From Nitrospirota bacterium (GTDB lineage: Bacteria; Nitrospirota; UBA9217): 64,000 bases of DNA. The translations under genes were made by a program, and so were the position numbers. The number at the start of each line of letters is the position of its first letter. Position 1 is the first letter of the stretch. The notes beneath the pieces were generated by a model that ran no database searches, was not told where the DNA came from, and saw only the letters and a list, made by a program, of their open reading frames with translations. Positions 40,130 to 47,746 of the stretch are shown here, in pieces. The stretch is taken from the NCBI GenBank assembly GCA_963840455.1, contig CAWIYV010000007.1, positions 1 through 64,000 on the forward strand, read 5' to 3'.

Positions 40130-42953
<2,824 letters not shown>

Positions 42954-42965
42954 GCCTGCTCTCCC

Positions 42966-44816
42966 TCAGGTGACGAGCGTCGTTTCGGCTGATGCTGTCC
43001 TGTTCCGGAGAAAATCCTGGGTGAACTGGCCCATTGCCTGCACCAGGATCTTTTCCGTATCCTCGGACAGGTCTTTCAGCTCTTGAATGCTGTGCAAGGC
43101 AGCCGGGTACTGGGTCTCCATGAAGGAAAAAAGCGCCTCTTCATAGGTCTTGACCTGGTCGGCCGGCACCGCATCAAGAAGGCCATGGACCGCTGCGTAG
43201 AGGATCACGATCTGCTTCTCCAGCGACAGCGGGTCATGCTGGTCCTGCTTCAGCACCTCCCGTTCCCGCTCACCGCGGGTCAGTTGATCCAAGGTAGCCT
43301 GGTCGACCTCCGCGCCGAACTTGACGAATTGTGCCATCTCCTGGTACTGGGCCAGATCAATGCGCAGGCGGCCGGCCACTTTCTTCATCACCCGGGTCTG
43401 GGCCATGCCGCCGACCCGCGAAACGGACAGCCCCACATCCATCGCCGGACGGAAGCCTTCGTTGAACAGGCCTGTATCAAGGAAGATCTGCCCGTCGCAG
43501 ATGGAAATGACATTGGTCGGGATAAAGGCCGAGATATCTCCTCCCAGGGTCTCGATGATGGGCAGCGCGGTAAGGGAGCCGCCGCCAAGATCTTCCCGGA
43601 GGCAGGCGGCTCGCTCCAGCAGGCGGGCGTGGACATAGAAGATGTCGCCGGGATAGGCTTCGCGCCCGATCGGCCGCTTTAAGAGTGCCGAGATCTCCCG
43701 GTAGGTGACCGCATGCTTGCTCAGGTCATCATAAATGACGAGGGCATGACCGCCGCTGTCCATGATGTCCTCGCCGATGGCGCAGGCCGCATAGGGGACC
43801 AGGTAGCGGAATGCAGGCTCTTCGTGAGAAAAGGCCACGACAATTATGGTGTACCCCATGGCACCTTGTTCTTGGAGCGTGCGGACCACGCGAGCCACGG
43901 TTGACGCTTTCTGGCCGATGGCCGCGTAGATGCATATGATGCCGGCATCCTTCTGGCTCAAAATGGTGTCAATGGCTATCGTCGTCTTGCCGATCTTGCG
44001 GTCGCCGAGGATCAGCTCGCGCTGGCCACGACCCAGGGGAACGAGGGCATCGATGATCTTGATCCCCGTGTGCAGCGGTTCGATCACCGGGTGACGCTCG
44101 ACGACTCCTGGTGCGATCCGTTCAACCGGCCGGACCCGTTCCGAATCGACCGGACCCTTTCCATCGATCGGCTGACCGAGGGCGTTCAGGATGCGGCCCT
44201 TGAGCGCTGGACCCGCGGGGATCTGCAGCAAACGGCCGGTCCTTTCCACCACGCTTCCTTCCTGGATCTCCGCCTCGGGGCCAAGCAGCAGGCACCCCAC
44301 GGAGTCCCGCAGCAGATTGAAGGCAATGCCGTAAACATCGTGCCGGAATCGGACGACCTCCTGAGCGCCCACACTGCGAAGTCCGGAGACGATCGCGATG
44401 CCATCACCGACCTGGATGACCTCCCCGGTGTCTGACAGCTCTTCGACGCGGAGACGCGGCTCGGTCTTCTCGATGATCCTTGCCAGATGAGCGGCCGTCT
44501 CGTCGACCGTCGTCAGCCCTTCCCGCCTCGCCGCTGCGAACTGCGACTCCAGTTCTCCCAGAAGCCTCCGGCGCAGATCGAGGTCGATCTTTTTCTCGCG
44601 CCCCAAGACCAGTCGGGCGCCCACGTCGAGATGAGGATTCACGCTCACCTCGAGGGAGATCTCGCGACCCGCTGCCGCCGACAGCTGTTCCCTGATGCGA
44701 TCGATGAGCTGGGGATCAAGAGGTATCTGGGTCTCCAGGAGCACAACAGGCTCGCGCAGACCTTTGAGAAGGGGGCCCAGATCGGAATCTGCTGGAGTAT
44801 GACGGCTCTCTGTCAT
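42966..44816 (-). CDS. atpA: F1 ATP synthase alpha subunit with an N-terminal delta-C-like domain
   Basis: VGDGIA, GRGQRELILGDRKIGKT, YDDLSKHA, GREAYPGD, PTNVISICDGQ; ~95 extra N-terminal residues; RBS AAGGGA before ATG 44816. Confidence 0.95.
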   Translation of the reverse strand: MTESRHTPADSDLGPLLKGLREPVVLLETQIPLDPQLIDRIREQLSAAAGREISLEVSVNPHLDVGARLVLGREKKIDLDLRRRLLGELESQFAAARREGLTTVDETAAHLARIIEKTEPRLRVEELSDTGEVIQVGDGIAIVSGLRSVGAQEVVRFRHDVYGIAFNLLRDSVGCLLLGPEAEIQEGSVVERTGRLLQIPAGPALKGRILNALGQPIDGKGPVDSERVRPVERIAPGVVERHPVIEPLHTGIKIIDALVPLGRGQRELILGDRKIGKTTIAIDTILSQKDAGIICIYAAIGQKASTVARVVRTLQEQGAMGYTIIVVAFSHEEPAFRYLVPYAACAIGEDIMDSGGHALVIYDDLSKHAVTYREISALLKRPIGREAYPGDIFYVHARLLERAACLREDLGGGSLTALPIIETLGGDISAFIPTNVISICDGQIFLDTGLFNEGFRPAMDVGLSVSRVGGMAQTRVMKKVAGRLRIDLAQYQEMAQFVKFGAEVDQATLDQLTRGEREREVLKQDQHDPLSLEKQIVILYAAVHGLLDAVPADQVKTYEEALFSFMETQYPAALHSIQELKDLSEDTEKILVQAMGQFTQDFLRNRTASAETTLVT

Positions 44817-44933: not shown

Positions 44934-45473
44934 TCAGGGATGGGATGACGCGTTTTCCATCTCCTTCAGGCTGGCCATGATGAGCTTTTGCGTCACTGTC
45001 CGGCGCTCGCTTTCCGTCAGCGATTCTTCGATGTAGCGGCGGGAGACCAGTGTGATGAGCGTGATCAGCTCTTCCGATGCTTCGCTGCCCACCCTGCTTT
45101 TTTCGGTATCAATGGTCTGCCGGGCCTGGAGAAGGATGGCGTCGGCTTCCTGTTCCGCCTGTTCCAGGCCGGCCTGTCGTTCGGTGTCCGCGGTGATCCT
45201 CGCCGCTTCTACGGTCAGCCGGGCTTCGTCACGGGCCTCGGTCTTCAGCAGGCTGGCCCGGTGCTGGGCCTCGGCATAGGCGGTATCCGCTTGGTCGGCC
45301 TTTTGGACCTCAGCGGCGATGCGGTCGCGTCTCGTTGTCAGATGGGTCCCCACGGACCGGCGCACGAAATACCGGATGATGACGACAAGGAGAACAAATT
45401 GCACGAGCTCGATCGCAAACCGGAGCGGTTCCCCGGTGATCTCGTGGAGCACTTCCTGGATCAGTTCGCTCAT
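44934..45473 (-). CDS. atpF: Fo subunit b
   Basis: Single TM (ELVQFVLLVVIIRYF), RRDRI, Ala/Glu-rich coiled coil. Confidence 0.88.
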   Translation of the reverse strand: MSELIQEVLHEITGEPLRFAIELVQFVLLVVIIRYFVRRSVGTHLTTRRDRIAAEVQKADQADTAYAEAQHRASLLKTEARDEARLTVEAARITADTERQAGLEQAEQEADAILLQARQTIDTEKSRVGSEASEELITLITLVSRRYIEESLTESERRTVTQKLIMASLKEMENASSHP

Positions 45474-45976
45474 GGATATTTCACCGCTCCTCTCGCTGCC
45501 AGGACCCGGTTGACCACGAACCGGAGCGTTTCCTCACTGACCTCAGGGATCATCTTGGCCAGGGTCTGCCTGCTGCATGTCAGGAGACGATCTTTCAGCT
45601 TGGCCTGCTCCTCATCCTTGAGACGGGCGACCTCCTCCCGCCCCGTGGCAAGGATGCTCTCGGCCTCGGCACGGGCCTTGGCACGCCTTGATTCCTGTGT
45701 CCTGGCTAGTTCTCCCTTGACCTCTTCATGCATCTGCTCTGCCGCATGTGATGCCTCGGCCGCTATCCTCCGTGCCTCTTCCTGCGCCTGCTCGGTCACT
45801 GAGCGTGCTTCCTCATACCGCGCTCGCGCCTTCTCCAGTTTGACGGCCCTTTTTTCCATGACAGTAAGCAGGGGCGTGAAGAACACCTTGCGCAGGATGC
45901 CATAGGTCGCAAGAAAGATGAACGCCATCGCGACCATGGTGATCCAATTCAGCTGTTCCAGCGGATTGAGATCCAT
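45470..45976 (-). CDS. Fo subunit b' (second b-type subunit)
   Basis: LNWIT...FLATYGILRKVFFTPLLTVMEKR, coiled coil. Confidence 0.88.
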   Translation of the reverse strand: MDLNPLEQLNWITMVAMAFIFLATYGILRKVFFTPLLTVMEKRAVKLEKARARYEEARSVTEQAQEEARRIAAEASHAAEQMHEEVKGELARTQESRRAKARAEAESILATGREEVARLKDEEQAKLKDRLLTCSRQTLAKMIPEVSEETLRFVVNRVLAARGAVKYP

Positions 45977-46003: not shown

Positions 46004-46231
46004 TCAGATCTTTGCCGCCACCATCAGCGCGATGACCAGGCAGTAGATGACCAGCGCCTCGACCAGGGCCATGGCGACCAGCATGGCGGTAAAGAGCTGA
46101 GGCGCTATTTCCGGCTGCCGGGTCATGCCCTCGATGGCAGCATGGGAGATCTTTCTCATGGCAAAGGCGGCAGCGATGGCGGCCGGCACGATGGTGAGTG
46201 TCGGGATGAACACTATGAGGATTGCCTGCAT
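46004..46231 (-). CDS. atpE: Fo subunit c (atypical)
   Basis: Loop EGMTRQPE, ALVEALVIY with the conserved Glu; RBS GGGGG. Confidence 0.93.
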   Translation of the reverse strand: MQAILIVFIPTLTIVPAAIAAAFAMRKISHAAIEGMTRQPEIAPQLFTAMLVAMALVEALVIYCLVIALMVAAKI

Positions 46232-46292
46232 TGATCTTCCCCCTTTCTGCATGTCAGGTTCGCCGCGTAAGCAATCTGTGTCTATGACGGGC

Positions 46293-47009
46293 TCACGTCC
46301 CGGTCCGGGCCGGTTCGGACGACGGCGGTCCGACCGTCGAAGGCTCCTGACGGTTTATGGTGTGAGGTCCTTTCTTTTCGCCATGGACGGCTTCAGCCAG
46401 GAAGTTCGCTGTCAGCAAGGTGAAGACCATCGGCTGGATGAAGGCCGGTATCAGGCCCAGGGCGTGAATGACCAGGGGTATCCCGTAGGGAGCTGCTTTG
46501 GTAACGAGCAGGACGACCAGGAACTCTCCCCCGATATTGCCGAACAACCGAAGGGACAACGAGAGCGTGTCCCCGATCTGCGAGATGATCTGGAGCGGAT
46601 TGGGCCAGAAAAGATGTTTGAGGGAGCCGGCGATCCCTTTGAACCTGGAGCTCAGGACGGTGATCCCGATCATGGCGATCAGGGCCAGCGTCAGGGGGCC
46701 GCTGTAGTAAGCGGTCGGCGGGATGTTGATGACCGGGATTGACAAAATGCACAACAGGTTGGAGAACAAAATGAACAGGAACAGGCTGGCGAGGAACGGC
46801 GCGATTACCGGCACGCCGTCAGGGCGCATGTCCCGGGCAAGCCGCACAAACCATTCGAGGACGAACTCAGCGGCATTCTGCGACCCATCGGGCACCTCAG
46901 TCAGTGCACGCCGGGTCGTCATGAAGGCCAGCGCGATCAGGACCAGCGCCACGAGCGCGAAATTGACGATCACAATGTAGGGGAGCAAGTGCCGTATTGC
47001 CTCAGGCAT
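46293..47009 (-). CDS. atpB: Fo subunit a
   Basis: PDGSQNAAE, LFILFSNL, PPTA, SLSLRLFGN, IQPMVFTLL. Confidence 0.93.
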   Translation of the reverse strand: MPEAIRHLLPYIVIVNFALVALVLIALAFMTTRRALTEVPDGSQNAAEFVLEWFVRLARDMRPDGVPVIAPFLASLFLFILFSNLLCILSIPVINIPPTAYYSGPLTLALIAMIGITVLSSRFKGIAGSLKHLFWPNPLQIISQIGDTLSLSLRLFGNIGGEFLVVLLVTKAAPYGIPLVIHALGLIPAFIQPMVFTLLTANFLAEAVHGEKKGPHTINRQEPSTVGPPSSEPARTGT

Positions 47010-47037: not shown

Positions 47038-47247
47038 TCACCATTCCTTCTTCAGCCGCATCATGTCACGGACAGCCAGGCTGAAGGCGATCAGGATACC
47101 GGCGCTGGTAATGAACGGAAAGGTGGTGAACCACTTGTCCAGGCCGTATCCGATGGCACCGCCCGCAGCTATATAGCTGGGGATCAACGACCAGATGGCG
47201 ACGATCTTAAGCAGCTTTGTCGAGAGCAGGCTTTTCATGGCTCGCAT
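47038..47247 (-). CDS. AtpZ/AtpQ-like (ATPase gene1) small membrane protein
   Basis: GGAIGYGLDKWFTTFP motif upstream of subunit a. Confidence 0.85.
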   Translation of the reverse strand: MRAMKSLLSTKLLKIVAIWSLIPSYIAAGGAIGYGLDKWFTTFPFITSAGILIAFSLAVRDMMRLKKEW

Positions 47248-47746
47248 GCTCCTTCATTTCCGGCGGCACGACCTGGACCGGTCCCTTGGCCTCTTCGACC
47301 GTCGGCACCTTCACCGGCATATGCCGCCAGAACTTCACGAGGAAGAGGGCTCCGATAAGAGCGGCCGTCGCATAGACCACAAATGGCAGCAACGCCGCGC
47401 TCGAGGCTTCAAATGCCCGCGGGTCGCTTCCCGCGAGGAGGGCCAGATACCCTGCCACTCCCGGAAGTATCAATACGCCCAGAAGAAGGGTAATCAAGGC
47501 CCTGTTCTGGAGTGAGGTCACTATTCCTGCTGCAAGGCAGATGCCGGTCAGGAATCCCAGCATGCAGGAAAGAACAAATTTCGACCATCCAAAGAAGCTG
47601 GTCAGGAATAGCAGAACGCCGAGCAATCCTCCGACCGTCACTATGGTCCAGAGCAGTCTGACGATCAAGGCCAGAAGATATCTGTTCCGCGCTTTCGTTC
47701 GTGCTTCTGCACCGGCTTCATCATCAAAAAAATTCGCCTGTTCCAC
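47207..47746 (-). CDS. Four-TM membrane protein, first gene of the atp operon (possibly AtpI-like)
   Basis: GTG start with RBS GGGAG, four hydrophobic segments, overlaps the next gene. Confidence 0.75.
   Translation of the reverse strand: MEQANFFDDEAGAEARTKARNRYLLALIVRLLWTIVTVGGLLGVLLFLTSFFGWSKFVLSCMLGFLTGICLAAGIVTSLQNRALITLLLGVLILPGVAGYLALLAGSDPRAFEASSAALLPFVVYATAALIGALFLVKFWRHMPVKVPTVEEAKGPVQVVPPEMKEHASHEKPALDKAA

Follow-up and report, generated by a model that had tools for sequence, protein, structure and literature searches.

A second F-type ATPase operon in a Nitrospirota genome, with the delta C-terminal domain fused to alpha and an alanine/arginine motif in the c subunit

The H+/ATP ratio of an F-type ATP synthase sets the lowest membrane potential that permits ATP synthesis. 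Two routes to a high ratio are known, large c-rings and several stators, and the natural candidates named for the second are uncharacterised. As regards the ring, the account in PMC2914638 describes the alanines that replace glycines in the c subunit of Bacillus pseudofirmus OF4 as loosening the packing of the inner helices and widening the ring. As regards the stators, Ueno et al. describe an engineered delta(deltaN)-alpha FoF1 of Bacillus PS3 that carries up to three b2-a stators and whose H+/ATP ratio rises from 3.0 to 5.8; the same text mentions natural delta-alpha fusions in Acidaminococcus fermentans and in two other UniProt entries (PMC12229609). The F1Fo of Chloroflexus aurantiacus is presented as having two stalks, two a-subunits and a c10 ring, with a separate, shortened and dimerising delta (PMC12002316). 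Both delta-alpha fusions and short deltas are discussed as multi-stalk candidates in bioRxiv 10.64898/2026.10.01.756066. Here we describe an operon on the minus strand of a stretch of 64,000 nucleotides from a Nitrospirota bacterium (assembly GCA_963840455.1, contig CAWIYV010000007.1, positions 1 to 64,000; hereafter, the window), and in particular the c subunit that it encodes. The operon is a complete second F-type ATPase/ATP synthase of its genome, and the c subunit is its rotor subunit. In the clade to which it belongs there is no delta gene and delta's C-terminal domain is fused to every alpha subunit, while a sub-clade has the c motif Ala-x-Ala-x-Ala-x-Ala-x-[Arg/Lys].

The c subunit was aligned to proteins of known structure with phmmer, against all PDB chains. 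Residues 13-71 align without gaps to residues 16-74 of Escherichia coli c (offset +3), and residues 17-71 to residues 24-78 of Ilyobacter tartaricus c (offset +7), so that R26 falls on residue 29 of E. coli c and on residue 33 of I. tartaricus c. A first-pass annotation, made by a model from the letters of the window, had aligned the subunit on its RQP loop and paired A20, A24 and R26 with E. coli positions 23, 27 and 29; phmmer returns the same pairing, and the helix-1 string quoted in that annotation is found exactly in the translation of the minus-strand open reading frame (ORF) at 46004-46231. The three E. coli residues we take to be glycines, as in the string quoted there. In the printed alignments, A20/A22/A24/R26 stand on A16/A18/A20/A22 of the AxAxAxA motif of OF4 and on G18/G20/G22/G24 of Bacillus PS3 c. 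When A18 is included, the window motif reads AxAxAxAxR, and the usual GxGxGxG, which is typical of F-type c subunits and not obligatory for them, is absent. The annotation had also claimed that the inner helix lacks glycine, and this holds: residues 1-34 are free of it and the first one, G35, lies beside the loop.

Conservation was counted on a homologue set obtained with a word-indexed protein search, which returned 271 proteins at E <= 0.001; the counts given here refer to the best 120 of them, almost all 75 amino acids long and 67-95% identical to the window c. Position 26 is arginine in 107, lysine in 12 and glutamine in one (R/K in 119/120), and M25 is kept in 119/120. Residues 1-25 hold no glycine in 110/120, although some members from Actinomycetota and Coriobacteriia retain one or two glycines further upstream in helix 1. 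In 67/120 the five packing positions are occupied by A-A-A-A-R. Position 27 is lysine in 63, arginine in 38 and another residue in 19, being basic in 101/120.

Near relatives were collected with a full HMMER pass over 1.84 billion 50%-identity cluster representatives, with 562 matches at E <= 0.001. In the best 150 of these 562 we counted 157 hairpins, each with an [RK][QNR]P loop and, at +20, an E or D. In place of R26 they have glycine in 95 cases, serine in 29, alanine in 13, tryptophan in 11, arginine in four and another residue in five. Two of the four arginine hairpins belong to the window c family, and the other two come from doubtful ORFs with non-hydrophobic N-termini. At the position equivalent to K27, lysine occurs 51 times and arginine 29 times, so that 80/157 hairpins are basic there. 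The annotation had read an Arg-Lys pair at the zipper position: its first half stands, as R26 does replace a packing glycine, whereas K27 proves ordinary. Judged by these alignments, the feature that is both conserved and rare is the arginine or lysine in place of the last packing glycine, and a basic residue one step later is commonplace. As a side observation, a HMMER stretch count gave 5-15 c hairpin repeats per polypeptide in P0192 (968 amino acids), P0194 (1139), P0199 (631) and P0195 (434), which may be covalently fused proteolipid rings, of A/V-like or F-like type.

The assignment of the subunit to the F-type c family is straightforward. It scores 50.4 bits against Pfam ATP-synt_C (PF00137, cut-off 24) and 48.9 bits against TIGR01260 (cut-off 43.95); it is co-encoded with a, b, alpha, gamma, beta and epsilon; and it is modelled as a hairpin, whose loop is the polar R-Q-P and whose second helix bears a carboxylate midway. 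An upstream ATG at 46252 would add seven residues to the ORF, but the start at 46231 is favoured because the homologues are 75 amino acids long and begin at this ATG; a purine-rich, Shine-Dalgarno-like run precedes it. AlphaFold2, given an alignment of 25 family members, models two helices (residues 2-38 and 40-74) with a mean predicted local distance difference test (pLDDT) score of 90.7. Residues 4-25 make up an unbroken hydrophobic run of 22 residues. The loop R38-Q39-P40 and E58 are invariant in all 119 anchored homologues, and the outer helix (helix 2) is nearly invariant across phyla. The periplasmic half of helix 1 carries two almost invariant prolines, unusual for an inner ring helix: P10 (46202-46204, minus strand), kept in 118/119 homologues, and P16 (46184-46186, minus strand), kept in 111/119.

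The ion site of the window c consists of M25 and of the stretch E58-A-L-V-I-Y63, which reads EALVIY in 111 of the best 120 of the 271 homologues. E58 falls on the carboxylates of the E. coli subunit (position 61) and the I. tartaricus subunit (position 65). M25 aligns with Gln32 of I. tartaricus, a helix-1 ion ligand according to the description in PMC2914638. The rule for a Na+ site, as formulated in bioRxiv 10.64898/2026.10.01.756066, combines E or Q in the middle of helix 1 with E[STQ][STQ]xxY in helix 2. We considered a Na+-binding c subunit and rejected it, as both parts of the rule fail (M25; E-A-L-V-I-Y). Because the rule fails on both counts, H+ is the likely ion of the window ring; the annotation had proposed the same from the missing Na+ ligands, and the sequence supports it. 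The other c subunits of the genome look different. That of a V/A-type enzyme (G000:C9:27495-27674) has a glutamine in helix 1 and a P-E-T-M site, with a Na+-like look, and that of the canonical Fo (G000:C10:267238-267423) has a long N-terminal extension and the site I-E-S-L-A-I-Y. Read from these sites, rotary enzymes for H+ and for Na+ may operate alongside each other in the organism.

The second distinguishing feature of the operon lies in alpha. Homologues of this subunit have 614-623 amino acids, so that M33 of the listed ORF is the probable start, with 118 residues ahead of the usual alpha N-terminus. No separate delta gene is present in the operon, where the gap between b' and alpha is only 117 nucleotides, and the only full-length OSCP match in the genome adjoins the canonical alpha on contig C11. 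Against Pfam OSCP, the alpha piece matches profile positions 106-165 of 172 with an E-value of 5.7e-4, and OSCP is matched by 7 of 18 aligned members. The best PDB profile match of the extension is to residues 379-426 of mycobacterial b-delta (E 0.0076), and when all six frames of the genome were scanned with OSCP, the fused copy was missed at E <= 0.1. By sequence, then, the homology to delta is weak, and the assignment draws mainly on the predicted fold. The AlphaFold2 model of the piece has a four-stranded sheet with helices (pLDDT 76), and a Foldseek comparison with the PDB ranks delta/OSCP chains first, with E 4e-4 to 1e-3 for the top hits and 4e-4 to 8e-3 over the whole set from Mycobacteroides, Pseudomonas, yeast, chloroplast, Bacillus PS3 and E. 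coli; V-ATPase chains of the V1 region come next. The N-terminal helical bundle of delta is absent, as only about 23 residues stand ahead of the fused domain.

A complex was then predicted between the 118-residue piece, as partner, and the C-terminal thirds of the two stalk subunits b and b'. The interaction prediction score from aligned errors (ipSAE) was 0.61, compared with 0.00 for the best of three controls; since like complexes have been solved, this value may reflect memory, and it shows likeness and not binding. The mark of 0.61 is reached by 116/157 solved complexes and by 2/215 mismatched pairs. Prediction runs agree in at least 88% of contacts, with a partner pLDDT of at least 74. 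The operon belongs to the recently recognised class of natural fusions between the delta C-terminal domain and alpha. Among Actinomycetota and Coriobacteriia, several alphas (L024:4091-4756; L025, L028, L031-L037) carry two tandem repeats resembling the delta C-terminal domain before alpha; those of L024 are 35% identical (E 7e-12). With such repeats, one enzyme would have as many as six modules for docking stalks.

In the direction of transcription, the operon comprises a membrane ORF at its head, an AtpZ-like gene, and the genes for a, c, b, b', alpha, gamma, beta and epsilon; coordinates are collected in Table 1. The head ORF matched no family among the Pfam and TIGR models and is possibly AtpI-like. 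Homologues of it, 27-65% identical, lie upstream in Nitrospirota, in Gemmatimonadales and in some Actinomycetota loci, and the AtpZ-like gene is kept upstream of a in related loci. The a subunit retains the stator arginine in LSLRLFGNI, a stretch that aligns to the chloroplast a subunit (6fkf_a).

Table 1. Features of the operon, with positions in the window
Feature	Position	Strand	Length (amino acids)	Remarks
Hydrophobic ORF, operon head	47207..47746	-	179	41-nucleotide overlap with the AtpZ-like gene
AtpZ-like small membrane protein	47038..47247	-	69	Pfam ATPase_gene1, 31.4 bits (cut-off 26.6)
a subunit	46293..47009	-	238	Pfam ATP-synt_A, 108 bits
c subunit (atpE-like)	46004..46231	-	75	Motif A18xA20xA22xA24xR26; loop R38-Q39-P40; carboxylate E58; Y63
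Codons of M25 (ATG), R26 (AGA) and K27 (AAG) of c	46151..46159	-		
Codon of E58 (GAG) of c	46058..46060	-		Ion-carrying carboxylate, 20 residues after loop R38
b subunit	45470..45976	-	168	Pfam ATP-synt_B
b' subunit	44934..45473	-	179	Pfam ATP-synt_B; start overlaps the stop of b
alpha subunit	42966..44816	-	616	TIGR00962, 688 bits; probable start M33 of a 648-residue ORF
N-terminal part of alpha	44463..44816	-	118	Predicted delta/OSCP C-terminal-domain fold, linker and alpha's own N-terminal helix
gamma subunit	42036..42953	-	305	Pfam ATP-synt, 196 bits
beta subunit	40516..42018	-		Probable start M48 of the ORF; Walker A GGAGVGKT; TIGR01039, 708 bits (cut-off 463)
epsilon subunit	40130..40519	-	129	Pfam ATP-synt_DE_N

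The genome that holds the window is 100% complete, in 14 contigs, and encodes two further rotary enzymes. One is a canonical F-type enzyme, with F1 on contig C11 (beta 839 bits; a full-length delta beside alpha) and the Fo c gene on contig C10; the other is a V/A-type enzyme on contig C9. The window beta and alpha are 60% and 52% identical to their canonical counterparts in the same genome, and family betas from other phyla are 66-87% identical to the window beta. Between 30 and 58 kb, GC content (guanine plus cytosine) stays at 0.56-0.64 and does not shift at the operon, which speaks neither for nor against a recent transfer.

The distribution of the operon was examined in a locus scan with one genome per species, which returned 80 loci. 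The pair M-[R/K] at c positions 25-26 is found in 42 of these. According to the record titles, they come from Nitrospirota metagenome-assembled genomes (MAGs), with c 84-96% identical to that of the window, from one Betaproteobacteria MAG, and from Gemmatimonadales, Anaeromyxobacter sp. PSR-1, Myxococcaceae and Kofleriaceae; further ones are titled Actinomycetota, Coriobacteriia and 'Eubacteriales' MAGs. Gene order is conserved among them, and in all 38 of the 42 loci that reach alpha the alpha match starts inside the N-terminal extension. The Betaproteobacteria MAG (L017) has a c subunit 93% identical to the window's and a wholly Nitrospirota-like operon, which points to a very recent transfer or else to mis-binning of the contig. 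Within the phylum of the window, the alpha extension was found in 9/301 sampled genomes, the window's own included, all nine in one family; it is present in 8/63 other genomes of that family and in 1/5 other genomes of the same genus. The clade is thus patchily distributed over Nitrospirota, Gemmatimonadota, Myxococcota and Actinomycetota/Coriobacteriia, and has probably been laterally transferred.

In five carrier genomes (G001-G005) we looked for beta. G001, a complete Coriobacteriia chromosome, has the fusion operon's beta as its only F-type beta, together with two V/A-type sets. G002 (Anaeromyxobacter), G003 and G005 hold a canonical F-type enzyme alongside the fusion operon, and in G004 only the fusion-operon beta was seen, interrupted by a frame break. 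Other MAG loci (L011, L019, L021 and L041, besides G004:C17) likewise have alpha, beta or gamma matches spread over several frames. Such breaks are probably assembly errors, although in some lineages the operon may be decaying.

Parts of the operon are also covered by contigs from RNA libraries of three studies (freshwater and wetland); these are short, 90-99% identical, and may stem from DNA carry-over. Two of them cover the c gene, at 46059-46219 with six differences and at 46034-46342 with nine. Six RNA runs contain only 6-14% of the sampled words, and the contigs came from four runs; the parts left uncovered are uninformative. Taken together, these contigs hint weakly at transcription of the operon in close relatives.

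On balance, we find it somewhat more probable than not that the operon represents a second, laterally acquired F-ATPase clade, in which the fusion of the delta C-terminal domain to alpha, an Ala/Arg H+ ring and a belt of charge at the mouth of the lumen make up a multi-stator, low-gear enzyme. The alanines would loosen the packing of the inner helices, as in the alkaliphile c13 ring. R26 would stand where the membrane-embedded part of helix 1 ends on the cytoplasmic side, bordering the variable, lumen-facing stripe of that helix. In the entropy profile of helix 1 over the 119 anchored homologues, this variable stripe consists of positions 17, 23, 27, 30 and 31; its centre is 31 degrees away from K27 and 69 degrees from R26, and M25 is on the opposite face. 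From this arrangement, and from the hydrophobic run of residues 4-25, we infer a place for R26 at the lumen mouth, where the hydrophobic surface lining the lumen would end on its cytoplasmic side. Together with the often basic residue 27, R26 would form a belt of up to 2n positive charges at the cytoplasmic mouth of the lumen, one residue deeper than the lysines or arginines of many ordinary c subunits. The belt would hold the head-groups of the lipid plug and set the splay of the inner helices, and would lie outside the ion path. The fused delta domains, in turn, would permit more than one b/b'-a stator, giving a low gear and a high H+/ATP ratio.

The first-pass annotation had also proposed a high H+/ATP ratio, suited to a low proton motive force (pmf), and had attributed it to a large or unusual ring. 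Our analysis suggests that it may be right about the ratio, with stator number a better-supported cause than ring size. The annotation left out the operon context, and the alpha fusion opens a different and better-precedented route to the same end, through several stalks and a-subunits.

Several observations weigh against the multi-stator reading. More distant loci (L048 and L054-L064) have the delta fusion and G or S at position 26; the fused-delta trait is therefore wider than the arginine trait, and the two features need not be functionally linked. Nor is the arginine indispensable, given that positions 26-27 are Ser-His in L030, a family-like locus from Actinomycetota. The lumen-facing place of R26 leans on an entropy profile of weak periodicity (moment 0.21) and on a helical wheel drawn from ring structures, and the residue replaced by R26 is one that normally points at the adjacent inner helix. 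Finally, the evidence for expression is weak.

An alternative that is compatible with the multi-stator reading, and that we hold possible though doubtful, is that alanine and arginine in the place of the glycine zipper enlarge the c-ring, so that ring size itself gives the high H+/ATP ratio, for a low pmf or for ATP-driven pumping. The OF4 ring goes in this direction, being a c13 ring with AxAxAxA that PMC2914638 describes as nearly as wide as a c15 ring. Mulkidjanian et al. likewise report, in bioRxiv 10.64898/2026.10.01.756066, that short or fused deltas accompany predicted large rings, and AlphaFold-based predictions of natural rings of up to about 27 subunits are presented in bioRxiv 10.1101/2024.02.27.582367. 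Chloroflexus, however, has a short delta and yet only a c10 ring in the structure described in PMC12002316. Moreover, stoichiometry is not fixed by sequence, and the monomer model of the window c matches the protomers of c10, c13, c14 and c15 rings about equally well, with template modelling (TM) scores of 0.73-0.82; because it fits them all alike, ring size is not readable from the fold.

We consider it rather improbable that R26 pairs with E58, of its own or of the neighbouring subunit, so as to lower its pKa or to lock the rotor, as in a regulated or one-way ATPase or one with altered coupling. R26 does adjoin M25, the residue aligned to the ligand Gln32 of I. tartaricus, and both residues are almost invariant. 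Against such a pairing, R26 lies about 100 degrees round the helix from M25, toward the variable stripe, and the basic residue one position later is common in ordinary c subunits (the 80/157 hairpins counted above, in the best 150 of 562 matches). In addition, the a subunit retains its stator arginine, and rotation driven by protonation would tend to be blocked if each site had a second fixed cation. A decaying or silent paralogue, with an odd c subunit arising from relaxed selection, would suit an accessory operon absent from most relatives (9/301 have it) but is hardly credible, since, apart from a separate delta, every core gene is intact and catalytic motifs are kept, the outer helix of c hardly varies between phyla, the operon supplies the sole F-type beta found in the complete Coriobacteriia chromosome G001, and RNA-library contigs from three studies cover it.

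The multi-stator reading can be pushed further, to a natural two- or three-stator enzyme with a loose Ala/Arg ring, whose basic lumen mouth clamps an anionic lipid plug and whose H+/ATP ratio is well above 5. In this full form we regard it as unlikely. If true, low-energy anaerobes and soil bacteria could make ATP, or hold their membrane potential, at a pmf near 50-70 mV, and the arginine would be a structural adaptation specific to the multi-stator gear. If instead the arginine is only a shifted membrane anchor, the c subunit would by itself be a modest curiosity. This type of operon pairs a stator-multiplying delta-alpha fusion with a ring-packing motif altered in a rare and conserved way, and at least one of its carriers, Anaeromyxobacter sp. 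PSR-1 (locus L022), is a harmless bacterium in culture. It is therefore a tractable system in which to ask whether natural multi-stalk F-ATPases exist, which ring they use, and what a charge does at the end of a glycine zipper.

What appears new, as far as the sequences go, is the alanine c motif tipped with arginine or lysine, while the F-type c family and the class of delta C-terminal domain-alpha fusions were known. In the literature in PubMed Central (PMC) and bioRxiv we found no account of a c subunit with AxAxAxAx[R/K], and nothing specific on a second ATPase of Anaeromyxobacter.

Among known systems, the N-type ATPase (e.g., that of Burkholderia pseudomallei, with a c17 ring) resembles the window operon in being an accessory second F-like operon that lacks a separate delta and is discussed as low-gear. 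We rejected membership in this type, as the scores fall below the cut-offs of all three models, TIGR03322, TIGR03305 and TIGR03324 (c 27.9 vs 130.85; beta, with TIGR03305, 582 vs 752; alpha 589 vs 750.5). The gene order differs as well: in the window it is the canonical a-c-b-alpha-gamma-beta-epsilon, whereas N-ATPase operons run atpD-C-Q-R-B-E-F-A-G.

The best PDB match to the window c is the c subunit of B. pseudofirmus OF4 (c13; 2x2v and 4cbj), with an E-value of 1.6e-7 and about 39-40% identity. Both have alanine for glycine in the inner-helix motif and an H+-coupled site of the Glu-only type, which in the window c is likely rather than established. Three of the four alanines of AxAxAxA align; the fourth, A22 of OF4, is the arginine of the window c, where an extra alanine, A18, precedes the motif. 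The PxxExxP of OF4 has no counterpart in the window, where the stretch reads A55-L-V-E58-A-L-V61, with no proline at E-3 or E+3. The hosts of the window clade, unlike OF4, are not known alkaliphiles, and the delta of OF4 is presumably a separate, ordinary gene.

With the engineered PS3 enzyme, the window operon shares the loss of the delta N-terminal domain, the joining of the delta C-terminal domain to the alpha N-terminus, and a predicted docking to b/b'. It differs in being a natural operon, in having a b/b' heterodimer, in occurring in other phyla and in its AxAxAxAxR c subunit. The Chloroflexus enzyme, whose c and a subunits are among the PDB matches of the window subunits, is likewise a natural F-type enzyme with an altered delta; it has more than one ion-conducting stator, as the window's enzyme would. 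Whereas the delta of Chloroflexus is separate, in the window operon the C-terminal half of delta is fused to alpha, which would provide three docking sites.

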